Shown one piece after another: positions 10,559 to 45,405 of a stretch of DNA of 64,000 nt. The position numbers were made by a program, and so were the translations under genes. Location: IMG/VR virus record IMGVR_UViG_3300012983_000048; one strand, 5' to 3'. The notes under the pieces were generated by a model. It did no database searches and had not been told where the DNA came from. It saw nothing but the letters and a program-made list of their open reading frames with translations. How positions within the stretch are numbered: position 1 is the stretch's first letter; each line of letters starts with the position of its first letter. This DNA is from a virus.

Positions 10559-10944
10559 TAAAAGATAATGAAACATTGAACCAAAGAAGAAAATTATCAT
10601 ATATGATAAATGTTTGGGATGATGTTTCATTACCATATACAATTGATTATGATAATATAATAAACAATGTTATTAAATTTTTTGAGACAGAATCTGAATT
10701 AGTATATCCTGCTAAATCATATTTTGTAGCAATTGTTTATGCTAAATGTTTGGAAAAATATTTTAGCATACCATTCTATGAGTCATTAGATTATGAGGAT
10801 TTATTATTTGATGACAAATATTTTGTGAAATATTCTAATAATAATGATGTATATGATAAAATTATTGAAAAAATTGGTGATATATGGCAATATAAATCAA
10901 TAGATAAAACAGTTGAATATTTTAAAAAAGAGTTTTTAATATGA
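10555..10944 (+). CDS. hypothetical protein
   Basis: 129-aa ORF overlapping its neighbours by 4 nt on each side (translational coupling). Confidence 0.45.
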   Translation: MIKDNETLNQRRKLSYMINVWDDVSLPYTIDYDNIINNVIKFFETESELVYPAKSYFVAIVYAKCLEKYFSIPFYESLDYEDLLFDDKYFVKYSNNNDVYDKIIEKIGDIWQYKSIDKTVEYFKKEFLI

Positions 10945-11738
10945 AAACCATATATGCAATACCAACATATAATTGTAATTTAAATTGTCCTCATTGTGAT
11001 ATACACAAAAGAAAAATACAATTTGATGAAGAAAAATTTATGGAAACACTAATTGATATACATGCAGATAGCATTGTCTTATTTGGTGGTGAACCTTTTT
11101 TAAATAAAGATGTCCTTAAAAAATGTATAGAAACAAATAAAATTAACAGCATATCCACAAATTTATTATTATTAGATAATGACATATTTAACTTAATACA
11201 AGAATATAATATATCATTAGCAACATCATGGAATCCAAAGAGATTTACAACAGAACAATACAAACTATGGTTGAATAATTTATCTAAATTTAAAAATACA
11301 AATACACCAATAGATGTGTTAATAACAATGACAAATGATTTGATAACAATGAGTGATGAAAGATTATTAAAAATATTATCTGATATTGATTATTTGGAAT
11401 CTGTTGATGGTATAGTGTTTGAGCATTTATTAGATAATAACCTTGATAATTTATTTCACCAAAGATGTGATGAGTGGTTATGTAAAATACACAATTTATG
11501 GAAATTTAAATTAAAAAATGTTATTGAAGAACGAGTTTTAAATTGGAATAATGATTGTTCAGATATATGGACATTAGAACCAACAGGTGAATTAAGATTT
11601 GGTTGCCCACAATACATAGGAAGAAAGATTGTTGATAAATGTTTAACATGTGAATTGGTTTCAAAATGCAAACCATGTATGTTACAAAAACATTGTAGTT
11701 TTCCAAAGAAATTATATGAGGTATTAGGCAATGGTTAG
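10941..11738 (+). CDS. radical SAM protein with C-terminal Cys cluster (SPASM/twitch-like), singleton type
   Basis: CNLNCPHC (Cx3Cx2C) at aa 12-19. GGEPFL SAM-binding motif. C-terminal CPQY..CLTCELVSKCKPCMLQKHC. Confidence 0.7.
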   Translation: MKTIYAIPTYNCNLNCPHCDIHKRKIQFDEEKFMETLIDIHADSIVLFGGEPFLNKDVLKKCIETNKINSISTNLLLLDNDIFNLIQEYNISLATSWNPKRFTTEQYKLWLNNLSKFKNTNTPIDVLITMTNDLITMSDERLLKILSDIDYLESVDGIVFEHLLDNNLDNLFHQRCDEWLCKIHNLWKFKLKNVIEERVLNWNNDCSDIWTLEPTGELRFGCPQYIGRKIVDKCLTCELVSKCKPCMLQKHCSFPKKLYEVLGNG

Positions 11739-12795
11739 TTCAGCAATTGATTGTGTTTTGTTTGATATGTGTAATTTAAATTGCAAACATTGTTTTCAAC
11801 AACACAATGTATTTAAATTCAATAAGGATAAAATTGATGAGTTTGTTTATCATATAGATAAAACAATTAGTGATGATATTAAAACCAAATCTATATCAAC
11901 TGTTTTATTATCATTGAGAGGTGGGGAGTTATTCCAGGATAGTTTAGGTGATGATGTATTTGGTCTATATAAACAAATGATAGAAAATATAAATTTTTTA
12001 TGCAAGACAAAATATCCATTAATTAATATTAAATATCATTTTATGACTAATGGAATATATAATAATATTGATAGAGTTGTTGATTTTATTCAATCAGTAA
12101 ATGGTGTCATGACATTATCATATGATCCAATTGGAAGATTTAAAACAGATAAACAATTAGAATTGTTTTATAGAAATTATGAAATTCTTAAAGAGAAAAA
12201 ATTGATAAAAAATATAGCAATAACATTGACAAAGGATTCTATTATAGAATATATTAAGAATAAAAATTTATTAAAACAGTTTTATCAGACAGATATTGAT
12301 ATAAATTATTATATACCAACAATGAATGGATTTGATTTACCATCAGATGATGATATATTTGATTTTTATAAATTTTTATTAGATAATGATATATTTAATG
12401 TGTTATATGTACAAAATATTTTAAACAGTTATATATATGGAACTCCAATTGGTCCAATTTGTTTATGTGATAATACTACTATTATATACAATAACAATTC
12501 ATATAGAAGTTGTAATGTTTATATACCAAATTATAAATTGAGTGACTTTTATGATGATACAAATATAAAAGATTTAGATGCTGTTGAATCAATAAAGAAA
12601 CAAGGTTTAAAGAAAAGAAATTGCATAATGTGTGAATATTATAAAAACTGTTCATATTATTGTTGGATGATGTTGTGTTATAGAAAATTTAAAATGTCAG
12701 AATGTCCCCATAAACGTATATATAAATATATTGAAAATAATTCAAAGATAATAGAAAACTTTAAAATATGGAAAAACACAAATGATATTAAATAA
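11731..12795 (+). CDS. radical SAM/SPASM-like protein, sub-family A (member 1 of 4 tandem)
   Basis: CNLNCKHC. LRGGELFQD. Tail RNCIMCEYYKNCSYYCW..ECPHKRI. Overlaps the previous ORF by 8 nt. Confidence 0.7.
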   Translation: MVSSAIDCVLFDMCNLNCKHCFQQHNVFKFNKDKIDEFVYHIDKTISDDIKTKSISTVLLSLRGGELFQDSLGDDVFGLYKQMIENINFLCKTKYPLINIKYHFMTNGIYNNIDRVVDFIQSVNGVMTLSYDPIGRFKTDKQLELFYRNYEILKEKKLIKNIAITLTKDSIIEYIKNKNLLKQFYQTDIDINYYIPTMNGFDLPSDDDIFDFYKFLLDNDIFNVLYVQNILNSYIYGTPIGPICLCDNTTIIYNNNSYRSCNVYIPNYKLSDFYDDTNIKDLDAVESIKKQGLKKRNCIMCEYYKNCSYYCWMMLCYRKFKMSECPHKRIYKYIENNSKIIENFKIWKNTNDIK

Positions 12796-13882
12796 CATTT
12801 ATCATAAAGAGTATGAAACTAATCTTGGAATTGATTGTATATTGTGGGAACAATGTAATAATAATTGTCTTCATTGTTTTCAACAACATTTAAAACAAGA
12901 TATTGATATAAATTTTTTAAAGACTCTTCCACCAATATTATTAAAAGATATTGATGATGAAATTATAAAAAGAAAAGTATCAAATATAAAATTATCATTG
13001 AGGGGTGGGGAGTTATTCCAGGATAGTTTAGGTGATGAATATTTTACAGAATATGAAAATATTATATCTTATATAAGACATAATTTATCTAATAAGTATC
13101 CAAATATAACAGTAAATTTTGATGTTATTTCAAATGGATTGTTTAAAAAAGTAGATAGATTTATTGATTTTGTTAAGAAGACAAATTGTAAAGTGTCATT
13201 ATCATATGATCCATATGGTAGATTATTTACACAAAAACAAAAAGATGTATTTTTAAATGTATATAATATATTAAATGAAAGTGGATATTTACGTGATATA
13301 TCAATTACACTAACAAAACCTTGTATTCAGCATTATATAAATGGAGATAGTGATTTAGAAATGTTTAGAAAGTGTGATGATATTGATATAAATTATTATA
13401 TACCAAATAAAAATTGGAAATTTTTATTACCAAGTGATGATGATTTATATAATTTTTTCAAATGGTTGGTTGATAATAATTATTTTAATGTTGCATATAT
13501 ACAAAATTTAATAAAAAGTATTATAAACAAAGATTACAGACCAAACAGAAGTTGTTCTTGTAATAATAGAATTATACACAACAAAGGCATCAAAACAACT
13601 AAATGTTCTGAATATATGGGTGGTATGGATGCTAAAGATTTTTATGGTGATGCTTTTGAAACAATGACAGAAGATAATTTTAATATTATTTCTGCATCTA
13701 TTGGTGTTAAAAAAAGAGGTTGCCAAATGTGTAAATATTATGATAAATGTCAAATGTGTTGTTGGTCCTCATTTAATTTTAAACATTATGAAGTTGGGGA
13801 ATGTCCCCATAAAAGAATTACCGAATATATAATAAACAATCAACAAATTATAGAAAGATTTAGGAATACTATTAATGACTGA
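12782..13882 (+). CDS. radical SAM/SPASM-like protein, sub-family A (2 of 4)
   Basis: CNNNCLHC. LRGGELFQD. GCQMCKYYDKCQMCCW..ECPHKRI. Shares a 43/44-nt near-identical tract with ORF 11731. Confidence 0.7.
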   Translation: MILNNIYHKEYETNLGIDCILWEQCNNNCLHCFQQHLKQDIDINFLKTLPPILLKDIDDEIIKRKVSNIKLSLRGGELFQDSLGDEYFTEYENIISYIRHNLSNKYPNITVNFDVISNGLFKKVDRFIDFVKKTNCKVSLSYDPYGRLFTQKQKDVFLNVYNILNESGYLRDISITLTKPCIQHYINGDSDLEMFRKCDDIDINYYIPNKNWKFLLPSDDDLYNFFKWLVDNNYFNVAYIQNLIKSIINKDYRPNRSCSCNNRIIHNKGIKTTKCSEYMGGMDAKDFYGDAFETMTEDNFNIISASIGVKKRGCQMCKYYDKCQMCCWSSFNFKHYEVGECPHKRITEYIINNQQIIERFRNTIND

Positions 13883-15020
13883 ACTTTTAACTTATCCAAA
13901 TTGGTCATATAAAACACCATTTATACCATTTTATAAAGATCCAACCCTTTATGAAATATCTTGTCTTTTATTTGAAAGATGTAATTTAAAATGTAAGTTT
14001 TGTTTTGAAGGTCATAGAAACAATAAAATAGATGTTGATTATATAAGAAAAATACCAAATCTAATAATTGATAACTTCAAAGAAGAATATAAGAAATATA
14101 ACAATATCAAAGAAGTTAATATAATGCTTTGGGGTGGAGAGTTATTTTTTGATGCATTACCTGACTCATTATTTGATGAATATAAGTTGTTGGTAGATAA
14201 TTTTAGAGAGTTATTTAGTGAATCATTTCCAAATATAAAAATTAGATTTTCATGGTTATCAAATGGGGTTTTTACTAAATGGGAAAGAGTGAAAGATATA
14301 ATTGAATATTCTAATGGTATAATTAATTTCTCATATGATCCAATTGATAGGTTTGGTTCATATAAACAAAAGGAATTAATGCTAGAAAATTCTAAAAGAT
14401 TTTATGAATTTGGTTTGAGTGAAGTTGTGTCTATAACACTAACAAAACAAAATATTAATGAATTCATATCAAACACAACAGATATAAACACCATGATGTC
14501 AACCATTGATGTTAATTTTTATATACCAAATAAAAATTGGGAAGAACTAATGCCAACAGATGATGATATATTTAATTTCTTTAAATGGGCATTAGATAAT
14601 AGATTGTTTCATATTAAAGTTATAGAGAAATTAATTTGGTATTATACAACCGAATATATTCAAAGACACTGTGATTGTAAAAGTTGTTCTCAATTAACAT
14701 ATGGTGAATGGAGTGTTGATTGTGCTAAACGAAGTTCTGAACTCCCAACAGAAATGTTTTTTGGTGAATATGCTAATATAATAAATGAAGAAAATAGTAA
14801 TGATATTAAGGTGTCATTGGGTATTAAAAAAAGAGGTTGCCAACTGTGTAAATATTATGATAGATGCCAAATGCCTTGTTGGATAAGTATGGTATTTAGT
14901 GAATATAAAACAACAAGATGCCCATATGAGAAAGCATATGAATATATTGAAATTAATAAAGATATATTATATGATTATATGAATTGGTGTGGTAAGGAAA
15001 TAAAATGTTTAGTAAAATAA
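13875..15020 (+). CDS. radical SAM/SPASM-like protein, sub-family A (3 of 4)
   Basis: CNLKCKFC. LWGGELFFD. GCQLCKYYDRCQMPCW..RCPYEKA. Carries 104-nt and 50-nt tracts identical to ORF 15005. Confidence 0.7.
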   Translation: MTELLTYPNWSYKTPFIPFYKDPTLYEISCLLFERCNLKCKFCFEGHRNNKIDVDYIRKIPNLIIDNFKEEYKKYNNIKEVNIMLWGGELFFDALPDSLFDEYKLLVDNFRELFSESFPNIKIRFSWLSNGVFTKWERVKDIIEYSNGIINFSYDPIDRFGSYKQKELMLENSKRFYEFGLSEVVSITLTKQNINEFISNTTDINTMMSTIDVNFYIPNKNWEELMPTDDDIFNFFKWALDNRLFHIKVIEKLIWYYTTEYIQRHCDCKSCSQLTYGEWSVDCAKRSSELPTEMFFGEYANIINEENSNDIKVSLGIKKRGCQLCKYYDRCQMPCWISMVFSEYKTTRCPYEKAYEYIEINKDILYDYMNWCGKEIKCLVK

Positions 15021-16120
15021 ATTTAGCAAAACAAGATAAAATACATAATGATAATAAGTTTGGTATTGATTGCCTTTTATTTGAAAGGTGTAATTTAAAA
15101 TGTAAGTTTTGTTTAGAAGAACATTCAAATAATAATATTGATTATGATTATATAAGAAAAATACCATATGATATTGTTGATAGAATGAAGGAAGAAATAA
15201 AAACACATAAAGATATCAAAGAAGTTAATATTAGATTATGGGGTGGAGAATTATTTTTTGATGCATTGCCTGACACATTATTTGATGAATATAAGTTGCT
15301 GGTGGATAACTTTAGAAAGTTATTTAGAAAAGATTTGAATGATGTTAATGTAACATTTTCTTGGATTTCTAATGGTGTTTTTACTAAATGGGAAAGAGTG
15401 AAAGATATAATTGAATATTCTAATGGGTTTATAGGATTTAGTTATGATCCAATTGATAGATATTCATCAGACACACAAAAAGAAATGTTTTTTAAAACAG
15501 TAGAATATTTTTATAATAATGACTTATTAAGTGATATATCAATCACATTGACAAAGAGAACAATTAATTGTTATATTAGTGGTAATAGTGATATTGAAAA
15601 GTTAAGAAAATATAAAAAGTTTGATGTTAATTTTTATATACCAAATAAAAATTGGGAAGAACTAATGCCAACAGATGATGATATATTTAATTTCTTTAAA
15701 TGGGCATTAGATAATAGATTGTTTGGTATATATGATATAGAAAAACTTGTTATGACATCAATGAATACTTCAAAAACAATTGGTAGAACCTGTAATTGTG
15801 ATAAACATTTATCACATTGTAAAAATTGTGTAACATATAATTGTGTTAAAAGTTCAACAATATTTGGAAATGATATGTTTTATGCTAATGAAACACAAAA
15901 CATTACAGAAGATTCTGTTTCAAATATTAAAGCATCATTGGGTATATTAAAAAGAGGTTGTTTAACTTGTAAATATTATGGTTCATGCTCAATGCCTTGT
16001 TGGACATCTATATTGTTTAAACATTATAAAATATCAGAATGTCCATATAAGAAAGCACATGATTATATAACAAACAACAAACACATAATAGAGAAATATA
16101 ATGAATACAAAAAATCTTAA
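15005..16120 (+). CDS. radical SAM/SPASM-like protein, sub-family A (4 of 4)
   Basis: CNLKCKFC. LWGGELFFD. GCLTCKYYGSCSMPCW..ECPYKKA. Confidence 0.7.
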   Translation: MFSKINLAKQDKIHNDNKFGIDCLLFERCNLKCKFCLEEHSNNNIDYDYIRKIPYDIVDRMKEEIKTHKDIKEVNIRLWGGELFFDALPDTLFDEYKLLVDNFRKLFRKDLNDVNVTFSWISNGVFTKWERVKDIIEYSNGFIGFSYDPIDRYSSDTQKEMFFKTVEYFYNNDLLSDISITLTKRTINCYISGNSDIEKLRKYKKFDVNFYIPNKNWEELMPTDDDIFNFFKWALDNRLFGIYDIEKLVMTSMNTSKTIGRTCNCDKHLSHCKNCVTYNCVKSSTIFGNDMFYANETQNITEDSVSNIKASLGILKRGCLTCKYYGSCSMPCWTSILFKHYKISECPYKKAHDYITNNKHIIEKYNEYKKS

Positions 16121-16985
16121 TTTATCTATTATACCATTATATCATTGTAATATGAATTGTGATTATTGTTATTTGGGTAATATGAAAAATGATAAAACCA
16201 TATTATCATTAAAAACACTTGATGAAAAAATTGCTGAATTATTACACAATGGTTATGATTTTTCACATATTTCAATATATGGTGGTGAAATAAGTTTATT
16301 AGATAAAAAATATCTTGATAATCTAATATATTTAATTAGAAAATGGGAAATAAATGTAACAACAAATTTGACAAATGATTGGATTATAGATTATTGTAAA
16401 AATAATAATATTCATATAAATGTATCATTAAATGAGGAAAGAAGCAATTATGAATATGTTTTAAAAAAAATAAAAAACATTGATTGTTCAATAACATCTG
16501 TTGTTCTTCCATCATTATTAGAAAAAGATATTAATAGTGTGTTAGAATTTTATAATTTGCTTGGTAAAAACGTTTATTTTTTGGAGTATAACCCGTCAAT
16601 ATATTGTAATAAGTATGATATATCAACAAAAGATTTTATTATATTTTTAAAGAATATTATAAATGAATATAATAAGGGTGACTATTGTTTTGATATAGAA
16701 AATATGAAATATTTAAATGATGATGAATACAATCCAACACAAAGTGGGTTTGTATTTATATTGCCAAATGGAAATTATGGGACAGTTGAATATAAAGATT
16801 CAATAGAACATTTAGTTGAGTTTGAATCAATCAATGAGTGGGAAAAGTATATTGTTAAAGAAAGAAAAGATTATTTAAAAAATTGTTGTTTATGTGAATT
16901 TTTTGATAAGTGTAAAGCAGAGCATTTAAAAACATTTTCAAAACCTTATTGCTCTGGTTTATATGATATTATTAAAAATAAATAA
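16101..16985 (+). CDS. radical SAM protein with short Cys tail
   Basis: CNMNCDYC at aa 16-23. IYGGEISLL. C-terminal CCLCEFFDKCKAEH..YCSG. Confidence 0.65.
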   Translation: MNTKNLNLSIIPLYHCNMNCDYCYLGNMKNDKTILSLKTLDEKIAELLHNGYDFSHISIYGGEISLLDKKYLDNLIYLIRKWEINVTTNLTNDWIIDYCKNNNIHINVSLNEERSNYEYVLKKIKNIDCSITSVVLPSLLEKDINSVLEFYNLLGKNVYFLEYNPSIYCNKYDISTKDFIIFLKNIINEYNKGDYCFDIENMKYLNDDEYNPTQSGFVFILPNGNYGTVEYKDSIEHLVEFESINEWEKYIVKERKDYLKNCCLCEFFDKCKAEHLKTFSKPYCSGLYDIIKNK

Positions 16986-17012
16986 TTGTATAATTTATTA
17001 TAAGGATTAAAG

Positions 17013-17732
17013 ATGGGTGTAACACAAAATCAAAAAATACAAAAAGTTACAGCAAATAATATAGTTGGTGCAATAACTGATTTTAATACAAATGTATTAA
17101 CAAAAGCATATAATCAAGCAACATACCATAGTGGTAATGTTCCAAAATTTTCTGGAACAGCAAATATTGGTTCAAATAATGTTGGGAGTGTTGGTTTTAC
17201 TAATCCAGCAGCATTACCATCAAATCAAATGTTGTCCAAAAGTGTTCCATCTTTAACATTATCTGATACTACTATATCTGCATCATCACTTTGGTCTCAG
17301 ATGTTAACAATGACACGAGCATTAAATAAGATTAGAAAATTTACATCAACATGGTATCATAGACAATTTACAACAGTAAACGATGATGCAAACTCATCTG
17401 ATCCAAATGGTGGTTCATTAATTAATAAAGGTTCAGTTTCAGGGACATGTGTTATAAATGCATCTTTCCCGGCAGTTCCAACAGCATCAAATGCATTAGG
17501 TGGTTCATCAACTTCTTGGGAAAGGAGTGGTACAACCTCAATAACATTGAATCCAAGTAGTGCCCTAACAACAAATGCCCAAATAACAGCTGGAAATATG
17601 AACACAACAATTACAAATTGTTATAATACATGGTATAATACTTGTATATCTGCAAACACATTGACATACAATTTATATACATGCCATTTAAATTGTCATG
17701 GTAATTGTTATGGAACAAGATCAAGGAGATAA
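17013..17732 (+). CDS. Ser/Thr/Asn-rich protein with Cys-rich C-terminal tail, a candidate radical-SAM substrate
   Basis: 239 aa with RBS AAGGA. Low-complexity S/T/N-rich body. The last 40 aa are ITNCYNTWYNTCISANTLTYNLYTCHLNCHGNCYGTRSRR (5 Cys). No enzymatic motif. Sits in the middle of the radical-SAM array. Confidence 0.5.
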   Translation: MGVTQNQKIQKVTANNIVGAITDFNTNVLTKAYNQATYHSGNVPKFSGTANIGSNNVGSVGFTNPAALPSNQMLSKSVPSLTLSDTTISASSLWSQMLTMTRALNKIRKFTSTWYHRQFTTVNDDANSSDPNGGSLINKGSVSGTCVINASFPAVPTASNALGGSSTSWERSGTTSITLNPSSALTTNAQITAGNMNTTITNCYNTWYNTCISANTLTYNLYTCHLNCHGNCYGTRSRR

Positions 17733-18460
17733 TGATGTTAAATAGTGGATTACCATATAGTGATGAAATATTAAACAAACCAATGGATGAACATTTAATT
17801 GTTGATATGTCTGATATTAAGTTTGATGGCATATTAATGTCTCAATATGCAAATATATCTATAATTTATTTAAGAAATACAGATTTAAAAAATATAAAAC
17901 TTGATTTTACAAAATCAGATTATGATTTTAAGTGTGATATGTTAAAGCAATATTTAATTGGTGATATTGAATATCAAATTGTTGAATTAGATGATACTTG
18001 GTTAAAAATCTTGGGAATGTATTATAATACATCATATAATACAAATGATTGTATATTGACAGATGATGAAATGAAGAAATTTATAGAAGATAATGAAAAA
18101 TTAATTATAGATGTTTTAACATTTTGTTTTTCATTACCATTATATCCATTATCAAGGTTAGATATGGTTGAAGAAGATAAATTTACTTTTGATGATGTAA
18201 CACATATTTGTGGTAAACCATTTAATAGTAATATTTGTAACTTGATTAAAAATGAGTGTTTTATGTTATTATTTGATAATAATGATATATCTATTAAACC
18301 ACATTTTTATGATGATATATTTACAGAATCAAACAATAAATTATTTGAATGTGTATCTAAATATACACCATTTACAGCATTATTATATGGGATGAGTAGT
18401 GGTGATGGATGGAAAGAATTTAGTAAAGGTTTAGCAGAATATGTTGATGGGGTAAATTAA
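17732..18460 (+). CDS. hypothetical protein
   Basis: The ORF track starts at 17705, but AGGAG at 17724-17728 followed by ATGATG at 17732 is the likelier start, overlapping the upstream stop as TAATG. Confidence 0.45.
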   Translation: MMLNSGLPYSDEILNKPMDEHLIVDMSDIKFDGILMSQYANISIIYLRNTDLKNIKLDFTKSDYDFKCDMLKQYLIGDIEYQIVELDDTWLKILGMYYNTSYNTNDCILTDDEMKKFIEDNEKLIIDVLTFCFSLPLYPLSRLDMVEEDKFTFDDVTHICGKPFNSNICNLIKNECFMLLFDNNDISIKPHFYDDIFTESNNKLFECVSKYTPFTALLYGMSSGDGWKEFSKGLAEYVDGVN

Positions 18461-18461
18461 T

Positions 18462-19499: not shown

Positions 19500-19503
19500 A
19501 AGC

Positions 19504-22301: not shown

Positions 22302-22334
22302 CCAGTAATAAATATACTTATAAGAGGTAAATTA

Positions 22335-24161: not shown

Positions 24162-24223
24162 ATAAAGATTAAATATTGTCATTAATATTAAATTATTATA
24201 TAATATCTCAAAAGGAGAAATAT

Positions 24224-25105
24224 ATGGTATGTAAACCTGTTTATGAATTTTTACTTTGGGATAATTGTAATAATAATTGTAAATTTTGTTTTCAAAGAAA
24301 GAATGGAATTATTCTGTCTCCATTGAATAAAATAAAATCTTTAAATTGTGTGTTAGAATTTTTAGATTCTAATGATTATGTAAATGGCAGTCATGTTTTA
24401 TTAGTTGGTGGTGAAATTTTTGATGAATCTAACCTTTTGATTATTAATGATTACGTAAATTTTTTTGAGAAAATTGTTGATAAAATGAACAGCAACAGTA
24501 TTGATTTATTATACATCAATACAAATTTATTGTATAACAATATGGGAATTTTAAATAAATTATTATCTCTTATTGATTATGATAACTTATGGGATAGGTT
24601 AAAATTTACAACATCATATGACTTAGAAGGTAGATTCTCAACAAAAGAAAAAGAAACCTTATTTTTGACAAATCTTAAATATGTAAAAAATACATATCCA
24701 AAATGTAATATAGTAGTCAACACAATATTAACAAAACAAACATGTGAAAAAATTTTAAACAATGTATTTAATCCAAAAGATTTTTGTGATGAATATAATT
24801 GTGATATAAATCTTATACCATATATTGTTTATACAGAAGAATTATCAGCAACAAGAGAACAAATATTTTCAACCTTAATTAAAGTTAATGAATTAATACC
24901 AAATTATTTTAATAGATATGTTGATAATTTTAGTTTAAAACAGGATAAATTATTATACAAGTATGATAATAAAAAACAATCTTTAACATTTGTATCATGT
25001 GATAATATGGAATGTGGTCATTCACAAAATTTTAAATTATATTCTAGTGATAACAGATGTTTTATATGTGATTTAATAGAATTATCTAAATTGTTTGGAG
25101 AATAA
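24224..25105 (+). CDS. radical SAM protein, sub-family C (1 of 4; motif at extreme N-terminus)
   Basis: AAGGAG 6 nt before ATG at 24224. MVCKPVYEFLLWDNCNNNCKFCFQ. LVGGEIFDE. C-terminal CDNMECGHSQN..CFICD. Confidence 0.65.
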   Translation: MVCKPVYEFLLWDNCNNNCKFCFQRKNGIILSPLNKIKSLNCVLEFLDSNDYVNGSHVLLVGGEIFDESNLLIINDYVNFFEKIVDKMNSNSIDLLYINTNLLYNNMGILNKLLSLIDYDNLWDRLKFTTSYDLEGRFSTKEKETLFLTNLKYVKNTYPKCNIVVNTILTKQTCEKILNNVFNPKDFCDEYNCDINLIPYIVYTEELSATREQIFSTLIKVNELIPNYFNRYVDNFSLKQDKLLYKYDNKKQSLTFVSCDNMECGHSQNFKLYSSDNRCFICDLIELSKLFGE

Positions 25106-25106
25106 G

Positions 25107-26024
25107 ATGAATAACTTTATACAATATGAATTATGGAAAGATTGTTCAAATGGTTGTAAATTCTGCTTTAATAAAGGACAAAAAGATTTAGATAAAATTG
25201 AATCATTAAATTTTGTAATTGATAAGTTAGATGATACAGAAGTTAATGAGTATAATGAAATAGGATTTATTGGTGGTGAGTTTTTTGATAGTCAATTGGA
25301 TAATAAGAATGTAAGACAATTGTTTTATAGATTATTTGATAAATGTATTGACAAAATTAAAAATAATAAAATTAATAAATTGTATATAACAACTGCTTTA
25401 TTGTTTGATATGAATAAACATTTGATACCATTTTTAAATTATTTAAATGATAAAGGTGTATTGGAAAATGTTTTACTTTGTACATCATATGATTTGAAAT
25501 ATAGATTTCATACTAGTGATAGAAAACATATGTGGGAATCTAATATGAAATTATTAAATTATGTATTTCCAAAATTAAGATTGCATACAGAAACAATTGT
25601 TTCTGGATTCTTTATTGAGTCAGTATTGAATGGTGAGTTTAGTATAACAGATTTTTGTAAAGAATATAATACACACATTGATTATATTGAACCCGGTTCT
25701 GGATTTTATTATTATGATAAGAAAGAATGTTCAAAAGATATGCCAGATTTCTTTCCTACAAAAGATAGGTTTATAGAATTTTTATACAAAGTTGCAATAG
25801 AAAATAGAGAAATAGATTTAGATACATTTATATCACCTAATGTTAGGTCTGATAAGATATATTGTAATTATAATGGTAAACGATATATAATGTCTAATAG
25901 AAGAAAAACTAATATGACAATATCTTTTACTGATATGGATGTAAAATATGAAACTGGTTTATTGGATTCTAATGATAAGATGTTAGAAATAGTTAAACAA
26001 GTAAAACAAATGTGTGGTGAATAA
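25107..26024 (+). CDS. radical SAM protein, sub-family C (2 of 4)
   Basis: GGAG then ATG at 25107 (the track's TTG at 25095 is less likely). MNNFIQYELWKDCSNGCKFCFNKG. FIGGEFFDS. Confidence 0.6.
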   Translation: MNNFIQYELWKDCSNGCKFCFNKGQKDLDKIESLNFVIDKLDDTEVNEYNEIGFIGGEFFDSQLDNKNVRQLFYRLFDKCIDKIKNNKINKLYITTALLFDMNKHLIPFLNYLNDKGVLENVLLCTSYDLKYRFHTSDRKHMWESNMKLLNYVFPKLRLHTETIVSGFFIESVLNGEFSITDFCKEYNTHIDYIEPGSGFYYYDKKECSKDMPDFFPTKDRFIEFLYKVAIENREIDLDTFISPNVRSDKIYCNYNGKRYIMSNRRKTNMTISFTDMDVKYETGLLDSNDKMLEIVKQVKQMCGE

Positions 26025-26025
26025 A

Positions 26026-27036
26026 ATGGATAAACATATAACTATTGTCTTAACTAATAAATGTAATTTAAAATGCAAACATTGTTTTGCAATCAGAAAT
26101 ACCACATCAATGTCAATGGATATATTGGAAAAAACAATTACATATCTAATTAATGAGGCAAATAACAATCCAAGTAATAGATATTTAATTGAATTTTTTG
26201 GTGGAGAGATTGGTTTATATGACCCAAATATACTATCTATTATGATAGATTACATGAGAGATAATGTTATTAATAATAATGTTGAAATATATGCACAATC
26301 AAATTTAGTATATAATTTAACAGATGAATGGTTAAATTTATTCAAAAAAATGGATTATTTGGATACATCATATGATTATTCTATTAGATTCTCAAATGAA
26401 CAACAAAGAGAATTATGGTTTAATAATGTTAGAAAAATAACATCTAATGGTATAGAATTGTCTTGTGTCATTACTATTACAAAAGATGTGGTAGAAAATT
26501 TAACACCCAGAGCATTATTTGATATAATGTTAGGATTGGGTATTAAAAAAATAGAATTAGAAAGGTTATTCCCACCATTAAAACCAATGGTAGAATATGA
26601 TAATGGTAATATTGTAGCAACAAACAGAGATGTTGATAAATGGATGTTTGATGCTTATCTTTTGTATGAAAAATTAAAGGATGTTGGTGTATATGTTGAA
26701 ACATTTAATTGTATGGAAGAATCAATATGTGGTAATAATTATTATGAGCATAGTAGGTGTTGCCAAGAAAACAATTTAACATTTTTACCAAATGGTGATG
26801 TATCACAATGTTTTGTAACATCAGTTAAACCATTTTTCAATATATTAAACCCAAATAATAAAAATATGGACATATACAATGAAAATGTTTTATTTGAGAA
26901 GAAATTAAATGATGGTTGTAGAGATTGTCCATATTTAAAATATTGTAGGGGTGATTGTTGTATGATGAAATGGGATTCAACTGGTTGTCCTACACCAAAA
27001 TTAATTTATGAATATCTTTTGACCAAGGGAGAATAA
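26026..27036 (+). CDS. radical SAM/SPASM-like protein, sub-family B
   Basis: ATG at 26026 just after the upstream stop. CNLKCKHC. FFGGEIGLYD. CMEESICGNNYYEHSRCCQEN..GCRDCPYLKYCRGDCCMMKWDSTGCPTP. Confidence 0.7.
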   Translation: MDKHITIVLTNKCNLKCKHCFAIRNTTSMSMDILEKTITYLINEANNNPSNRYLIEFFGGEIGLYDPNILSIMIDYMRDNVINNNVEIYAQSNLVYNLTDEWLNLFKKMDYLDTSYDYSIRFSNEQQRELWFNNVRKITSNGIELSCVITITKDVVENLTPRALFDIMLGLGIKKIELERLFPPLKPMVEYDNGNIVATNRDVDKWMFDAYLLYEKLKDVGVYVETFNCMEESICGNNYYEHSRCCQENNLTFLPNGDVSQCFVTSVKPFFNILNPNNKNMDIYNENVLFEKKLNDGCRDCPYLKYCRGDCCMMKWDSTGCPTPKLIYEYLLTKGE

Positions 27037-27716
27037 TGTTTTTTAAAAATTGTCCATTTTGTAATGAAAATGTTGATTATGTATATAATTCAGATGATAA
27101 ATTATATACTATAAAATGCAATGGTTGTTCAAAAAATGGAATAATTGTGTCTATTTCAAATAATGATTTAACAGAATTACAAAATAAATGGAATAAGAGA
27201 GTATTTGATGATGTGTTATTAAATGATACAGAATATAGTATAAAAATGTTATCATTTTTTAATGGAACATTAAAAAACAAAGAAGATATATCAATATTTA
27301 GAACCGATAAGTATCATAAAGAATTTGATTCATTTAATATATCAGAAGATATATTTGGTTATATGGTTATGCCAAATGGAGATGTTATAATTTGTGATGA
27401 TGAACACTCAAAAGAATTATTAAAATATTTGGGTATTGATGATGAGTTAAATACAGATGAAATAATAAGTATTGCAGTATCATGTGGTATAATTAGAATT
27501 TCTAAACAAGCAAAATGTTTAATGTTTGATTTAGTTCCTAATAAAATAAATAAAACCCAAATAACATCATTGATTAAATTTTTGGTGGAAAATAGTGATA
27601 AATTAAATTATATAAAAACATTTTGTGTATATAAAAATGGTGGAACATGTGCTAGAGATATAGAAGTATTAGATACATTAAATGATTTAATATTATATTT
27701 AGATGGGATAAAATGA
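27036..27716 (+). CDS. Cys4 zinc-ribbon protein, hypothetical
   Basis: N-terminus MFFKNCPFCNE..(15 aa)..CNGCSKNG (CxxC-x17-CxxC). Remainder uncharacterised. Embedded between radical-SAM genes. Confidence 0.45.
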   Translation: MFFKNCPFCNENVDYVYNSDDKLYTIKCNGCSKNGIIVSISNNDLTELQNKWNKRVFDDVLLNDTEYSIKMLSFFNGTLKNKEDISIFRTDKYHKEFDSFNISEDIFGYMVMPNGDVIICDDEHSKELLKYLGIDDELNTDEIISIAVSCGIIRISKQAKCLMFDLVPNKINKTQITSLIKFLVENSDKLNYIKTFCVYKNGGTCARDIEVLDTLNDLILYLDGIK

Positions 27717-27717
27717 T

Positions 27718-28662
27718 ATGATAGAAAATAATTTTCAGCATTGTTGCCAATATGGTGTATGGCCAAATTGTTGTAATAATTGTGATTTTTGTTTGAGAGA
27801 AGAAAGAGAATTTCTTACTAAAAAATTACAATTAAGAAATTTAGATATGATAAAGAAAAATATTGATGTTTTGGATTGGAAGAATAAATTTAGTTATGGT
27901 ATATCTTTATTGGGTGGTGAATTATATTATATTAAAGACAAAGAACTACAAGAATCATTTTTAGAATTAATTGATATAATCATTGAAAAAATTCTCAAAG
28001 TATCTACAAATCCTGGTTGCAGATATTCTACTGTAACAAATGGATTATATGAACCAACTTTTTTATATAAAGTTATTGATAAAATTGTTGATGCTGTGGG
28101 TGTTGGTAAAATTGATGTAAATTTTTCATATGATTTTAAATATAGATATAAAAGTGAAGAAGATTCCAAATTGGTATTAAAGAACATTAATGATTTCCAT
28201 AATAGATATAATTATTGTGTTGGGGTTCAAATGATTTTAACACAGTATTTAATTAATATGTGGAAAGATGGTAAATTTGATGTAAATGAATTTATGAATA
28301 ATGAAATTCCAGGCAATATGTTGTGTTTATTATATCCACATCCAATTAAAACTGGAAAACCATTAGATGATTTTTTCTTTAATAGAGATGATTTCTTGGA
28401 GTTTATTATGTATTTAAAAGAAGAACGATATGAAGTATATGAATCATTCTTACATTCAACTAAGAATTCTTGTTCTTTTAAATATACAGGTTTGAAAGGA
28501 AAAAATTGGTCAAATGATCCATATGAACAACCAGTATTAACTGATGGAAAGGAAATAATAAACGAAGAATGTGGTCATTCAATATTATATAAATGTTATT
28601 CTGATTGTGATAACTGTATGTTATGTGATTTAATGTTATTAGATGGTGAGGTGTATTTATGA
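27718..28662 (+). CDS. radical SAM protein, sub-family C (3 of 4)
   Basis: CCQYGVWPNCCNNCDFCLRE (Cx3Cx2C plus two extra Cys). LLGGELYYI. C-terminal CGHSILYKCYSDCDNCMLCD. Confidence 0.6.
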   Translation: MIENNFQHCCQYGVWPNCCNNCDFCLREEREFLTKKLQLRNLDMIKKNIDVLDWKNKFSYGISLLGGELYYIKDKELQESFLELIDIIIEKILKVSTNPGCRYSTVTNGLYEPTFLYKVIDKIVDAVGVGKIDVNFSYDFKYRYKSEEDSKLVLKNINDFHNRYNYCVGVQMILTQYLINMWKDGKFDVNEFMNNEIPGNMLCLLYPHPIKTGKPLDDFFFNRDDFLEFIMYLKEERYEVYESFLHSTKNSCSFKYTGLKGKNWSNDPYEQPVLTDGKEIINEECGHSILYKCYSDCDNCMLCDLMLLDGEVYL

Positions 28663-29636
28663 GAGGAAAACAATTGCAATTTGAACTTTGGCAAGAGTGT
28701 AATAGTAGATGTAAGTTCTGTTATTTAGCACATGATAATTGTTATACATCAGATAAAATCAAAATAGATTCTATAAAGATGGCATATGATAAAATATCTG
28801 ATTTATCATTATATCCAGAATATTCTACTATATCATATTTGGGTGGTGAATTTTTTCAAGGTCAAATGAAATCAAAAGAAGTAAAAGAAGAGTTTATGAA
28901 CCTTATAGATAAAACCGTTTGGTTGTTAAATAATGAATATATAGATACTGTGTGGATATATGCAACATTAACTATTGGTGATCAAAAAGATTTATATGAA
29001 ACCCTTGAAAAATTTAAGGGTCATAAAGGTAATCTTTGGATATTAACATCATATGATACAATTGGTAGATTTCATACAAAAAAGATGGAAGATAATTGGT
29101 CATATCATATGAAACAAATTCATAAATTATATCCAGATATTTTATTTAATATTACAACAATATTAACAGGGGATTTAATTGACAAGTATTTAAATGATGA
29201 GATTAATTTTGAAAAGATGATGGAAGAATACCATACAAAATTTTTCTTTAAACAATGTGGTAATCCATATATACATAAAACAAAACAAGATATGAATAAT
29301 GTTTTGCCAAATTTCTTTCCTACTAGACAAAAGTTTTTAGATTTTCTTATTAAATTTAAACAGCAAGAATCACCAGAAATGTGGGATAAATTATTTAATA
29401 TTTATTATAGAGCAGATAATTTATATAGAAACTTTAATGATGAAAATGAACATATGGTTGAGTTTGTAAGAGATAAAGACACTTCCATTGAACATTCAAA
29501 ATATTTAGAAGATCCAAGTTTATTAAATACAGTAATATTACCATGTGGTCATATGAATTCATATCAAGCATATATTGATACAGATGATTGTGTTTTATGT
29601 GATAGACAGATGATAGAGGAAATGTGTGGTGACTAA
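28659..29636 (+). CDS. radical SAM protein, sub-family C (4 of 4)
   Basis: LQFELWQECNSRCKFCYLAH. YLGGEFFQG. C-terminal LPCGHMNSYQAYIDTDDCVLCD. Confidence 0.6.
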   Translation: MRGKQLQFELWQECNSRCKFCYLAHDNCYTSDKIKIDSIKMAYDKISDLSLYPEYSTISYLGGEFFQGQMKSKEVKEEFMNLIDKTVWLLNNEYIDTVWIYATLTIGDQKDLYETLEKFKGHKGNLWILTSYDTIGRFHTKKMEDNWSYHMKQIHKLYPDILFNITTILTGDLIDKYLNDEINFEKMMEEYHTKFFFKQCGNPYIHKTKQDMNNVLPNFFPTRQKFLDFLIKFKQQESPEMWDKLFNIYYRADNLYRNFNDENEHMVEFVRDKDTSIEHSKYLEDPSLLNTVILPCGHMNSYQAYIDTDDCVLCDRQMIEEMCGD

Positions 29637-30153
29637 TATTGTTAATAAAGATGATATTGTAAAATTGGTTGTAAGTCCAATTAATTTGGATGAAATACAA
29701 ATTTTAAATAATAGAGATATATATATTAAACCAAATGAATCAATTGAATATAACACAGGTATATACATAGATTGTGGTGGAAATGAAAATGTATTTGTTA
29801 AACACGATATAAAAGAATATCCAATGATTATTATTGAGTGTTGCAGATATTGTGATGATTCATCAAATAATTGTGAAATTATATTACCAATTACAAATAT
29901 TTCTAATAATGAAATTATTATCAAAGAAAATACACGAATTGCAATTATATATAATACTTTAAAACAAAAATTTGATAATAAAGAATCAAAAAGAGTTGTG
30001 TATGATAATGATGATATAGTTGTATTGGATAATGGTGAAAATAGAATTAAAAATTTAGAATTTACTATATCTTCTGAAAATGAATCAAGATTAATAATAG
30101 ATTTTGAAAAGGATATATATAAAAATCCATTAATGTATAATAATGTTGAATAA
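29626..30153 (+). CDS. hypothetical protein (start uncertain, GTG)
   Basis: 175-aa ORF. Only a GTG start at 29626 overlaps the upstream gene. Contains a CCRYCDD..NNC Cys patch. No confident motif. Confidence 0.35.
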   Translation: MVTNIVNKDDIVKLVVSPINLDEIQILNNRDIYIKPNESIEYNTGIYIDCGGNENVFVKHDIKEYPMIIIECCRYCDDSSNNCEIILPITNISNNEIIIKENTRIAIIYNTLKQKFDNKESKRVVYDNDDIVVLDNGENRIKNLEFTISSENESRLIIDFEKDIYKNPLMYNNVE

Positions 30154-30163
30154 AGGATAAAAT

Positions 30164-31177
30164 ATGAATAATATAGTAGAATGGTGGTTAAATGCAGGAA
30201 GATTAAATGATATGGAAATGTTTATTCTTTCCAATACAAGAAGTGAAGATGCTATTTTATATTCTGATAAAGAATATAAAAAAATGGAATCTGAATATTT
30301 TAATAGAATGCCTTTTAGTAACATATCATCTAAAACACATAATATCATGTTTGATACTTGTGCTACAAATCATATTAAAAATTTATTCAAAAAATATGTT
30401 AATGAAGATACATTAGTAATAACATCAATGAATGAACATAATAATGTAAAAGAATTGGTTAATAATTGTAATAATAAACTAATATTAAATCATTATAAAG
30501 ATATTATCACATTAAATGTTGATACTATTGTAACAGAGTGTAAAAAATATAAGAAAGCATTTATATATATTATTGGAACACAAATATCTTCTGGTGAGAT
30601 AACACCACAATTATTTTATGAAACATTGAAGAAACAATTGGTAATTAATAATATTGAACACATTATGGTTTTGGATGATGTTCAAGGAATGTTTATGGTT
30701 CCAAGAGATTATTCAATATTTGATTATGTGGTTGGAACTGCTCATGCATTAATTGAGGGTTATGATATGGGTATTTTAATTAGTAGAAATAATGATTTTG
30801 GAATTAAAGCAATAAATTGGGGTTATGATTATTTAGAATTGTTAGATATAATGTTAAAAAGAAAGGATTTATTGAATAGTTTTACACAAGTAATGACACA
30901 ATATTTTCATTATGATTTGATTAAATATGGATTTTCATTATTTCAAAATACTGCACCACATATATTTGCAATAAAGACAAATGGTATGGAATTTACAGAA
31001 GAAATGCATTCCTTATTAGATAACTATTGTATAAGATTAGAGGGTATTGGTAATGATTATGTTCCAAATATATTCATAAGAATGAGAGCACAACAATATA
31101 TAAAATTTCCGGAGACATGTATTGATGGATTAAAAGTTCTACATAATTTGTTGGAAGAGATAAAGGATAGTAAATAA
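30164..31177 (+). CDS. PLP-fold protein resembling class-V aminotransferase/cysteine-desulfurase, apparently lacking the Schiff-base Lys
   Basis: FDTCATNHIKNLFKKYVNEDTLVITSMNEHNNV resembles NifS/IscS TSGATE..N..IITS..EH.SV. The region that aligns to S-G-H-K of desulfurases reads GTAHALIEG (Lys replaced by Ala). Alignment done from memory only. Confidence 0.3.
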   Translation: MNNIVEWWLNAGRLNDMEMFILSNTRSEDAILYSDKEYKKMESEYFNRMPFSNISSKTHNIMFDTCATNHIKNLFKKYVNEDTLVITSMNEHNNVKELVNNCNNKLILNHYKDIITLNVDTIVTECKKYKKAFIYIIGTQISSGEITPQLFYETLKKQLVINNIEHIMVLDDVQGMFMVPRDYSIFDYVVGTAHALIEGYDMGILISRNNDFGIKAINWGYDYLELLDIMLKRKDLLNSFTQVMTQYFHYDLIKYGFSLFQNTAPHIFAIKTNGMEFTEEMHSLLDNYCIRLEGIGNDYVPNIFIRMRAQQYIKFPETCIDGLKVLHNLLEEIKDSK

Positions 31178-31178
31178 T

Positions 31179-31994
31179 ATGGAAAATAAACAACAATTTA
31201 ATACTTGGAAATCATTGGTTGAAGATATAGAAATAAAAACTCAATTAGATTGTTTAAGAATAATTGAATTAAATATTTCTAATGTTTGTAATTTAAAATG
31301 CAGTTTCTGTCCTCAATCACATGGTTGGAAAACAAATAAAGAAATATTTATGGGATTACATACAGTTAAAGAGATATGCAAACAATTGAATGAAATTGAT
31401 TATAAAGGGTTTGTCTGTATTGCTGGGTGGGGAGAACCATCAACAAATCCAAATTTTTATGAAATTGTTGATATATTAAAATCTTTTAATCCACAGATTG
31501 TTACTAATGGAAAATTATTGGATAAAGATGTTTGGGAAAAAATAACAAAAATTGCACAAATAAAAGTATCTGTTCATGATTGGTCTAATATACAATGGTT
31601 TAAAAATAAATTCCAAAATACAAATGCTTGGTATAGAAATCATGATGTAAATAATCCACAAATGAATTTATATAATAGGGGTGGTTATTTAAATAAACCA
31701 ATAGAAAGAATATATAAAGAGTGTTATTTACCATTTTATAAAATTGCAATTGATGTTGATGGGAAATACATACAATGTGAAGCAGATTGGGAGTGTAAAT
31801 CTGAAACAGAAAATAGTATTTGGAATACACATATAGAAAATTATTTTGTCAATAAATGTGATATTGTTAGAGAAAAAATGTTATCAGAAAATAAAAGACA
31901 ATCATTTAATTGTTGTAAGGATTGTGACATTGATGGTAGATTATATGGTAAAAAATTTGTAGATTTTTGGATTAATAATGTTAAAGAGAAATGA
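31179..31994 (+). CDS. radical SAM protein (short, minimal Cys tail)
   Basis: ISNVCNLKCSFCPQSH at aa 33-48. CIAGWGEPSTNP. C-terminal SFNCCKDCDIDG. Confidence 0.65.
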   Translation: MENKQQFNTWKSLVEDIEIKTQLDCLRIIELNISNVCNLKCSFCPQSHGWKTNKEIFMGLHTVKEICKQLNEIDYKGFVCIAGWGEPSTNPNFYEIVDILKSFNPQIVTNGKLLDKDVWEKITKIAQIKVSVHDWSNIQWFKNKFQNTNAWYRNHDVNNPQMNLYNRGGYLNKPIERIYKECYLPFYKIAIDVDGKYIQCEADWECKSETENSIWNTHIENYFVNKCDIVREKMLSENKRQSFNCCKDCDIDGRLYGKKFVDFWINNVKEK

Positions 31995-45367: not shown

Positions 45368-45376
45368 CATATGTCA

Positions 45377-45405
45377 TTGACGATTAAAAAATACTGTGAT
45401 ATATT
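45377..45405 (+). promoter_or_regulatory. sigma70-like promoter TTGACG-N17-TGaTATATT
   Basis: Lies in the intergenic gap before ORF 45433 (RBS AAAGGAGAG). Confidence 0.4.

Follow-up and report, generated by a model that had tools for sequence, protein, structure and literature searches.

Why a bacteriophage would carry fifteen radical S-adenosylmethionine (rSAM) genes in a single run is the question raised by a 64,000-nucleotide stretch of viral DNA, IMG/VR record IMGVR_UViG_3300012983_000048 (hereafter the window, meaning the whole stretch analysed), in which an earlier note had pointed out such an array. The genes lie within a train of 28 consecutive open reading frames (ORFs; g01 to g28) that runs uninterrupted along the + strand from 8966 to 32868. 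The array does not stand alone: it combines and expands modules that recur separately in other phages. We give slightly better than even odds (about 55%) to the reading, drawn from sequence comparison, that the 21-kb stretch forms a composite island of protein-maturation modules resembling those for peptides that are made on ribosomes and then modified post-translationally (RiPPs), carried by a large, probably jumbo, AT-rich phage.

The fifteen enzymes

The cluster motif CX3CX2C is present in 15 of the 28 ORFs, where it starts at residue 11-37, and in none of the other 13. All 15 proteins match PF04055 and/or PF13353 at E<0.01 in hidden Markov model (HMM) searches, which bears out the assignment made in the earlier note. 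The PF04055 gathering score is exceeded by eight of them (g04, g07, g08, g09, g13, g14, g15 and g27) and that of PF13353 by two further genes (g05 and g21), while g06, g19, g20, g23 and g24 stay below threshold in both models. These five are nevertheless clear paralogues of members that pass: g06 aligns with g05 in BLASTP (6e-84) and the C-type proteins align with the A-type ones at about 1e-8; besides, g24, the C-type member scanned against PHROGs, matches phrog_1802 (E 1.6e-12). The downstream GGE-type motif ascribed to all fifteen was found as GGE or GGD in 13, with g13 (GEG) and g27 (GWGEP) carrying variants.

All-vs-all BLASTP confirmed the three proposed sub-families, namely A (g05-g08, 35-59% identity), B (g14 and g21, 37% identity, with g04 as a distant B-like relative) and C (g19, g20, g23 and g24, 23-33% identity), and left g09, g13, g15 and g27 as singletons; the CGH..CxxCD tail said to mark sub-family C is missing from g20. 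HMMs built from 57-69 orthologues for each of the four core types described below (A, B, R15 and R9) typed g05-g08 as A (160-185 bits), g14 and g21 as B (277 and 204 bits), g15 as R15 (347 bits) and g09 as R9 (152 bits), and placed g04 weakly in B (66 bits) and g19 weakly in A (71 bits). The attribution of a SPASM/twitch tail to every member was too generous. The SPASM core motif CX2CX5CX2-3C occurs in eight genes (g04-g08, g14, g15 and g21) and partially in g09, whereas the tails of the C-type proteins and g27 are unlike it and are not demonstrably SPASM/twitch, and g20 has no Cys tail; only g13 exceeds the Pfam SPASM threshold (PF13186, 39.6 bits versus 21.5).

The position of the cluster motif leaves no room for a fused N-terminal RiPP recognition element (RRE) in any of the fifteen, as had been noticed before, and no PqqD match that would reveal a fused or discrete RRE partner was found on any ORF scanned. 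All fifteen score below the curated cutoffs of the characterised NCBIfam families, and for the metabolic rSAM families MoaA, BioB, LipA, HemN, NrdG and QueE no member scored above cutoff. Among NCBIfam models, g09, g14 and g15 resemble crosslinking peptide maturases best, though weakly (DynA, YhhB, AmcB, FxsB, GrrM, XyeB and PapB), with DynA scoring highest, at 50 bits for g14 against a cutoff of 450, and YhhB reaching 29 against 445. A viperin-like (pVip) identity was considered and rejected, the match being limited to the N-terminal ~100 residues (PADLOC) and NF038283 giving 18-37 bits against a cutoff of 180; defence-system models returned generic viperin-core matches only. Sequence searches of the PDB with g13, g14, g15, g26, g28 and g01 gave weak matches or none.

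The genes are closely packed, although not in the uniform manner reported earlier: instead of overlaps of 4-20 nt, 17 of the junctions in the island are overlaps (1-35 nt) and 10 are gaps (1-62 nt). Scans for consensus promoters and terminators gave results at chance level, so the claim of a single, translationally coupled operon is based on strand and spacing only. The array spans 33% of the window, and not about one quarter as given previously; the coding sequence of the rSAM genes by itself makes up 22.7%.

A module shared with other large phages

The core of the first module (module 1) consists of four rSAM types, B (g14/g21), A (g05-g08), R15 (g15) and R9 (g09), together with the small protein g03 and a protein that we call TAIL (g10). 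Searches with tblastn using the A-, B- and g15-type proteins returned the same 15 of 50,697 phage records each time. The cultured carriers include Agrobacterium phage Atu_ph07, Sinorhizobium phage Phosso, Pseudomonas phage pPa_SNUABM_DT01 (DT01) and a phiKZ-related Ralstonia/Burkholderia group (RSL2, RSF1, FLC4/6/8, S13 and RsoM3USA). In Atu_ph07 and RSL2 the module-1 homologues are co-located next to structural genes, and local BLASTP identified a shared core made of B, A, enzymes of the g15 type (38-40% identity) and the g09 type, a 130-aa protein resembling g03 and a protein matching g10 at its C-terminus only. At the nucleotide level, megablast of the 21-kb region against the 50,697 phage records gave no match.

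The module is also widespread in metagenomic viruses. A pattern-seeded IMG/VR scan with the g15-type alignment detected g15 relatives on at least 362 contigs, and ORFs were typed in the best 80 loci, 34 of which had full 10-kb flanks; in the fetched loci the longest ORFs were called mechanically and only within +/-10 kb, so that all counts are lower bounds. Within the 34 full-flank loci, type A was present in 34, B in 34, R9 in 33, TAIL in 27 and g03 in 27, and exactly four typed rSAM genes were found in 27. Two gene orders were recurrent, 'B TAIL A R15 R9 g03' and 'B R15 R9 g03 A'. In unrelated lineages of phages, the four enzyme types show strict genomic linkage to g03 and TAIL, and the synteny search suggested at the outset did recover homologous modules both in cultured phages and in IMG/VR contigs. 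When array size was counted as ORFs of at least 200 aa with CX3CX2C in the first 90 residues, 26 of the 80 loci had 6-9 rSAM genes within 21 kb, and the array of 15 in the window was the largest among the loci compared. Homologues of the A-type enzymes were found on metagenome contigs of up to 480 kb.

All six parts of the core occur in the window, where module 1 comprises g03, g04, g05-g08, g09, g10, g11, g12, g14, g15 and g21, with g13 sitting among them; these and all other genes of the island are on the + strand. The small all-helical protein g03 (10555-10944) is the most conserved component of the module. It is followed by g04 (10941-11738), a short rSAM protein distantly related to type B (PF04055, 37.2 bits) with a CX2CX5CX2C tail, and by the four tandem type-A rSAM/SPASM paralogues (11731-16120; g05, 11731-12795; g06, 12782-13882; g07, 13875-15020; g08, 15005-16120), whose tails combine CX2CX5CX3C with ECP(H/Y). 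One related locus (L004) has three A copies, and g05, g07 and g08 find their best match in a different one each, so that the A paralogues appear to be old and to have distinct retained functions rather than to result from recent amplification. The core type R9 enzyme g09 (16101-16985; PF04055, 43.1 bits), with its partial SPASM, precedes TAIL, and after TAIL this lineage carries two unknown proteins, g11 (17735-18460) and g12 (18462-19499), for which profile scans gave no family match and which are kept beside g10 in three other loci (L003, L004 and L007; g11 also in L103). Further downstream are the core type-B rSAM/SPASM enzyme g14 (20393-21379), 34% identical to Atu_ph07 gp171, and the R15 enzyme g15 (21363-22301), which is the best-conserved enzyme of the module and shares 36-40% identity with genes of cultured jumbo phages. 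The second type-B rSAM/SPASM gene, g21, lies apart at 26014-27036. It is followed by g22 (27036-27716), which joins an N-terminal zinc ribbon like that of the restriction-alleviation protein Lar to an uncharacterised 170-aa domain (PF14354, E 1.8e-4; phrog_599, E 8.5e-7; TIGR03655, E 2e-5; the Pfam and TIGR matches do not reach cutoff).

Additional observations concern the distribution of the module. Eight full-length g15-type matches were located in metagenome-assembled genomes (MAGs) labelled Bacteriovoracaceae, Bdellovibrio, Rhodobacteraceae and Rickettsiales, and the four-rSAM module with TAIL and g03 was also seen in Bacteriovoracaceae/Bdellovibrio MAGs (L011; also L010, L012 and L017). 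The L011 copy (CBDCDT010000002.1, 2.20-2.22 Mb of a 2.45-Mb contig) has LolA, signal peptidase II, a DinG-like helicase and a gene for a formylglycine-generating enzyme (FGE)-sulfatase as neighbours, and this setting, which does not look like a prophage, indicates that a predatory bacterium carries the copy in its chromosome; the remaining MAG matches could be mis-binned phage contigs. Proteins similar to g03 and ~65% identical to that of the window were found on ~218 kb contigs from dozens of independent assemblies (P0200, P0211 and others), one such cluster spanning 53 contigs, and this repeated recovery suggests that a common related jumbo phage is present in public data. In phages of aerobic hosts (RSL2, locus L006, 72.4-84.9 kb; L008, 8312-8947; S13; RP12/RP31) the module is accompanied by a cupin, 2-oxoglutarate (2OG)-Fe(II) oxygenases, DHFR and an MgoB-like gene. 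The AT-rich relatives multiply rSAM paralogues instead, which may represent a split of one pathway into O2-dependent and O2-independent versions.

The TAIL protein and its conserved terminus

The proposal that candidate substrates are embedded in the array was sustained by two proteins with conserved, unusual C-terminal tails, g10 and g17. The first of them, TAIL (g10, 17013-17732), is the candidate substrate of module 1 and consists of a folded alpha/beta domain and, after it, a C-terminal CHLNCHGNCYGTRSRR that is predicted to be disordered; the AlphaFold2 model has a pLDDT of 81 and a pTM of 0.77, with the domain folded confidently and the last 14 residues disordered. Across the family (403 clusters, 50%-identity representatives), the C-terminal 16-mer is nearly invariant while the rest of the protein diverges. 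The exact ending C-H-x-[S/N]-C-H-x-[S/N]-C-H-[G/S]-S-R-[G/S]-R-R-COOH was present in 98 of the best 150 of the 403 clusters, and nearly all the remaining representatives were small variants ending in RxRR; in g10 itself the third repeat reads C-Y and not C-H. A narrowed TAIL alignment used as locus query retrieved one IMG/VR contig only.

The gene arrangement in other phages is also informative. In three loci (L051, L058 and L076), an operon on the minus strand, facing the B-R15-R9-g03-A genes, starts with one or two short TAIL genes (113-136 aa) and continues with five further rSAM genes, which is the classic layout of a precursor followed by its maturases. In the text of the RP12/RP31 paper, no virion proteomics data on the TAIL homologue were found.

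A second module and a third unit

Module 2 is formed by g16, g17, g18, the C-type rSAM genes and g26. Its non-enzyme genes begin with g16 (22335-23027), followed by g17 (22993-23595), a candidate substrate with a Cys-punctuated poly-Ser tail ending in MFIAYMEI, and g18 (23595-24161), a g17 paralogue without the tail. In the g17 family the tail has 20-30 Ser with 1-4 Cys between them and then [M/I/V]-F-I-A-Y-M-[D/K]-I-COOH, and it is kept on more than ten other contigs. An 18-nt tandem DNA repeat at 23516-23569 encodes the poly-Ser tract, the length of which differs among g17 relatives from ~20 to ~36 Ser. The sub-family C enzymes are g19 (24176-25105, or from 24224), g20 (25095-26024), g23 (27718-28662) and g24 (28659-29636), the last two with the CGH..CxxCD tail and with 48-64% identical homologues on IMG/VR contigs of 200-290 kb. 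They are followed by g25 (29626-30153), of unknown function, and g26 (30164-31177), which occurs among C-type rSAM genes in 10 or more contigs.

C-type enzymes always adjoin g16/g17/g18/g26, and on IMG/VR contigs of 203-287 kb module 2 appears in the order 'g01-like, g16, g17, g18, C, C, g26, C x3-4'. No core module was found within 10 kb on those contigs, and module 2 is thus separable from module 1. In one contig (L133, IMGVR_UViG_3300045988_157480), module 2 is tandemly duplicated, with two g16, g17 (poly-Ser) and g17-like units, each flanked by C-type rSAM genes.

The third unit consists of g27, g28 and g13, and its order g27-g28-g13 is kept in L003. The rSAM protein g27 (31179-31994; PF04055, 48.7 bits) is paired with g28 (31978-32868), and g13 (19504-20403) is the most canonical rSAM/SPASM member of the array (PF04055, 72.6 bits); its C-terminus matches BtrN (PDB 4m7t, E 2.4e-5, 27 bits). 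Relatives of g13 and g27 with 23-31% identity are found in Campylobacter phages, some of them annotated 'BtrN', and in a Synechococcus phage, g27 being 28-29% identical to the Synechococcus phage SPASM protein and the Campylobacter phage 'BtrN' genes. A 58% identical homologue of g28 stands beside the g27 homologue in L003. The presence of PLP (pyridoxal 5'-phosphate) enzymes within the array was upheld in part. As judged from its sequence, g28 is a credible HisC-like PLP enzyme, a fold-type-I aminotransferase or decarboxylase, with a SFDKLVGCGLRLGF motif, a PF00155 score of 20.7 bits against a gathering score of 19.7, a TIGR01141 match at E 8e-8 and the PLP-lysine motif SFDK (SFDK..G..GLRLGF). 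The same assignment was rejected for g26, which has no invariant Lys, shows an invariant Ala at the Schiff-base Lys position (T-A-H-A) and gave only a 13.5-bit class-V-like match.

What the island may do

Post-translational modification of proteins, one of the roles that the earlier note had put forward, is the reading best supported by the gene context. In module 1, the B, A, R15 and R9 enzymes together with the small helical g03 would act on the co-encoded TAIL, the proposed target being its flexible C-terminal (C-H-x-S/N)3-R-G/S-R-R. Each enzyme would hold a [4Fe-4S] cluster through CX3CX2C, convert SAM to the 5'-deoxyadenosyl radical and abstract H from a tail residue, and intramolecular crosslinks would be the most likely products, either a His-to-Ser/Asn C-beta cyclophane or a Cys thioether. 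The His cyclophane is suggested because rSAM/SPASM enzymes that form cyclophanes crosslink omega1-X2-X3 motifs, and H-x-S is such a motif. In module 2, the four C-type enzymes may do a like job on the Cys-punctuated poly-Ser tail of g17, while g27/g13 with g28 resemble a BtrN/BtrS-type pair, in which an rSAM dehydrogenase is followed by transamination, and could turn a hydroxyl into an amine on the same or another substrate. The modified proteins would probably act at the virion or cell-envelope interface, since both module types adjoin fibre genes and module 1 is also found in predatory Bacteriovoracaceae. We infer that the two tails are the substrates, and likewise the chemistry and biological role outlined here, whereas the family membership of the enzymes, the conservation and separability of the modules and the conservation and predicted disorder of the tails are shown.

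Several points weigh against this reading. All fifteen proteins fall short of the curated cutoffs for peptide-maturase families, seven of the 34 full-flank loci showed no TAIL within +/-10 kb, and fifteen enzymes far exceed the obvious need of two short tails. Moreover, the three Cys and three His of the terminus could be a metal-binding site and not a substrate, and the cupin, 2OG-Fe(II) oxygenases, DHFR and MgoB-like gene that lie in or near the module of cultured relatives would also fit small-molecule chemistry.

The last point leads to the first rival, a multi-step small-molecule, nucleotide or DNA-hypermodification pathway in which TAIL and g17 would be unrelated passengers or scaffolds. 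It has precedents in the rSAM and PLP steps of thymidine hypermodification and in a 7-deazapurine-type route, and it has been described that thymidine hypermodification in phages employs radical-SAM and PLP enzymes (PMC8989533). The aminotransferase-like PLP protein g28, the weakly NT5C/HAD-like g02, the DHFR gene inside the module of RSL2-type phages and the weak relationship of g13 and g27 to the Campylobacter phage arrays would all be compatible with such a pathway. However, the scanned ORFs of the 64-kb window, which is part of a contig longer than 100 kb, include no dUMP hydroxymethylase/thymidylate synthase, 5-hydroxymethyldeoxyuridine (5-hmdU) DNA kinase, aGPT-Pplase, QueC/D/E or DpdA-like gene, so that the DNA-hypermodification alternative offered in the earlier note gained no positive support there. 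In addition, the SPASM-type enzymes resemble peptide maturases most, and the near-invariant TAIL terminus and its strict linkage to the enzymes would be left unexplained. We therefore regard this pathway as unlikely.

The metal-binding potential of the terminus is the starting point of another rival, according to which the TAIL end, and perhaps the g17 tail, binds metal, Fe-S or nucleic acid and the rSAM proteins are auxiliary metabolic genes that support the host's anaerobic metabolism or cofactor supply. Three Cys and three His followed by RGRR could indeed act as a chelator of Zn, Fe or Ni and as a nucleic-acid-binding element, and a metabolic or Fe-S-related role was proposed by the authors who described the rSAM genes of phage CP220 (PMC2853527) and of a Tara genome (PMC5332604). 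This explanation appears very improbable when confronted with the lack of any member above cutoff for a known metabolic rSAM family, the occurrence of the module in aerobic-host phages of Pseudomonas, Ralstonia and Agrobacterium, the precursor-first operon, which suits a maturation pathway, and the fact that unrelated phages inherit the four enzyme types together with a single family of small proteins, which is the signature of a dedicated pathway. Equally doubtful is a modification of sugars or glycans (an aminosugar on a fibre glycoprotein or host polysaccharide, made by BtrN-like dehydrogenases and the aminotransferase, with poly-Ser as O-glycosylation tract), which can call on the BtrN match at the g13 C-terminus, the 'BtrN' annotation of g27 relatives, the conserved g27-g28 pairing, the conserved poly-Ser tract of g17 and the fibre genes on both sides of the island but relies on a weak similarity (27 bits), finds no glycosyltransferase, nucleotidyltransferase or sugar-nucleotide enzyme in the island and explains at most g13, g27 and g28, not the other twelve.

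Returning to protein maturation, a bolder version of it can be formulated, although we consider it rather unlikely in its full extent. Phages from several unrelated jumbo and T4-like lineages and the predatory Bacteriovoracaceae would share a dedicated rSAM pathway that installs unprecedented crosslinks in (Cys-His-x-Ser)3-Arg-Gly-Arg-Arg and thereby produces an effector acting at the envelope of prey or host, and the AT-rich phages would have expanded it to 15 enzymes and a second substrate class, marked by the Cys-punctuated poly-Ser tail. Possible roles of such an effector are to aid DNA or cell entry, to counter HXS-like periplasmic barriers or to exclude superinfecting phages. If true, no large RiPP-like system for protein maturation encoded by phages would have preceded it, and its substrate motif would be of a class new for rSAM enzymes.

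The rest of the window

The window is AT-rich (22-32% GC), and tail-fibre genes, recognised by PHROGs and Pfam fibre domains, lie on both flanks of the island, in agreement with the earlier placement of the array between two tail-fibre modules. At the 5' end of the train, g01 (8966-9871) is a fibre-like gene with a conserved C-terminal domain, a phrog_6427 match and 37% identity to the C-terminus of Atu_ph07 gp176; in other phages a g01-like gene adjoins 11 of the 34 core loci and most module-2 loci. The following gene, g02 (9926-10558), may encode an HAD/NT5C-like phosphatase, with an N-terminal DFDDT and a weak PF06941 match (E 0.003, below cutoff), and it is outside the conserved module. 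An NAD-dependent ligase and a gp46/SbcC-like protein are also encoded in the window, the best relatives of the latter (~31% identity) being in 350-kb Rak2-like jumbo phages. The source is probably a large, jumbo phage, and the window corresponds to part of a 102.8-kb metagenome contig in ENA (ERZ27246346, k141_330651). The tblastn search of one flanking fibre-like gene against the phage records gave no match, and scans for tRNA and Rfam families found none.

Other features were noticed outside the island. An N6/N4 DNA methyltransferase (PF01555, E 6e-32) lies directly 3' of an ORF weakly resembling the MamI restriction endonuclease (48561-50571, +), and the two could be a phage-borne restriction-modification-like pair or the methylase an orphan. 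Genes for a phage PDDEXK nuclease (40919-41446, +), a GGACT/AIG2-like gamma-glutamyl cyclotransferase (43929-44348, +), an Hsp20 small heat-shock protein (55847-56350, -) and an SPFH/Band-7 protein (56724-57878, +) were also recognised. A stretch of ~1.2 kb (45367-46538) has no ORF of at least 100 aa and no Rfam family or tRNA, and contains an A/G-rich AAGAAGAAA-type repeat at 45882-45931.

Comparison with known systems

Arrays of many rSAM genes in phages are not without precedent. The earlier statements that phages occasionally carry one radical-SAM gene and that such a system had not been described are not supported, since phages with many rSAM genes have been published; nor is the array an invention of this one operon, as it joins modules that recur separately. 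CP220 has 11 rSAM genes and CPt10 has 12 (PMC2853527), the marine T4-like genome TARA_ERS488813_N000010 has 12 (PMC5332604) and DT01 has 6 (PMC8541153), in each case without explanation, while RP12/RP31 and S13 have 3-4 rSAM genes plus oxygenases. The CP220, CPt10 and Tara genomes share with the phage of the window a large lytic myovirus-type genome and a high number of rSAM genes, but theirs form clusters of about five plus others (PMC2853527), compared with 15 in one 21-kb run here. The possibility that the Campylobacter phage arrays are the same system was rejected, as types A, B, R15 and C gave no tblastn match at E<=1e-3 and only g13 and g27 are weakly related; the comparison with CP220 covered its first 50 kb.

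True homologues of module 1 in synteny, beside structural genes, are found in Atu_ph07 (gp164-172), Phosso, the RSL2 group (gp066-081 in RSL2; also RSF1, FLC6, FLC8, S13 and RsoM3USA) and DT01 (gp057-066). These cultured jumbo-phage clusters differ from the island in having 4-6 rSAM genes, with 25-40% identity to those of the window, and in lacking module 2 (C-type enzymes, g16-g18 and g26), and they are annotated just as 'radical SAM domain protein' or 'hypothetical'.

In 2-deoxystreptamine biosynthesis, BtrN is an rSAM dehydrogenase with a twitch domain and works with the aminotransferase BtrS. The pairing of an rSAM protein with an aminotransferase in g27-g28, with g13 near, is reminiscent of this system, in which C-OH is oxidised to C=O and then transaminated, but the similarity is very weak and there are no sugar-pathway neighbours in the island. 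For the anaerobic sulfatase-maturating enzymes (anSME, TIGR03942), the scores were 37-49 bits against a cutoff of 349, and there is no sulfatase gene in the window.

The maturases of triceptides, darobactin and dynobactin (XyeB, GrrM, FxsB, YhhB, AmcB, HtkB/HaaB, DarE and DynA) resemble the window enzymes in being SPASM-type and often devoid of a fused RRE, and they act on repeated aromatic-x-x motifs including His, to which the H-x-S/N of TAIL can be compared. rSAM enzymes that form a cyclophane from His-C2 to Lys-C-beta exist, and His-based cyclophanes are established (HtkB/HaaB; PMC11499958). On the other hand, the scores of the window enzymes amount to 5-15% of those families' cutoffs, each His of the TAIL repeat has a Cys before it, and the known substrates are short secreted peptides from bacterial biosynthetic gene clusters, in contrast to the phage proteins of 113-320 aa considered here.

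The nearest functional precedent is the HXS anti-phage system, in which HxsB and HxsC, both rSAM enzymes, and the small HxsD carry out the maturation of HxsA, a folded protein bearing His-Xaa-Ser repeats (PMC13128918). In both cases a folded protein, and not a short peptide, is encoded beside several rSAM enzymes and a small partner and has tandem His-x-Ser-type repeats in a basic context, and the proposed maturation is a covalent change within the repeat. The phage proteins are not members of the HXS families: the best scores were 27 bits against 370 for HxsB (TIGR03978) and 26 against 268 for HxsC (TIGR03977), with a range of 23-27, and g10 has no NCBIfam match. The phage repeat is C-H-x-S/N with a period of 4, in three copies at the extreme C-terminus with RxRR after them; the core enzymes number four (15 in the window) instead of two, neither a peptidoglycan-binding domain nor a signal for N-terminal processing was seen here, and the carriers are phages and Bacteriovoracaceae, as opposed to the defence islands of Enterobacterales.

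No description of the TAIL motif, the four-enzyme core or module 2 was found in the open-access literature, which omits most subscription-journal papers. The maturation of a ribosomal product by rSAM/SPASM enzymes is known, and what would be new is its encoding by phages, on new substrate motifs and at an unusual scale. Phage genomes with multiple rSAM genes have been unexplained since 2010, and the largest array among those seen is here tied to a conserved, testable unit, in which four types of enzyme and one small partner go with a protein whose last 16 residues are nearly invariant. Its presence in phages that can be cultured (Atu_ph07, RSL2/RSF1, DT01 and S13) makes genetics and mass spectrometry feasible. 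Should the tails be confirmed as substrates, they would represent a new substrate motif and probably a new rSAM/SPASM crosslink chemistry, to which phages devote up to ~21 kb for protein or peptide maturation, and the system could be a phage-side counterpart of the recently described HXS defence system.

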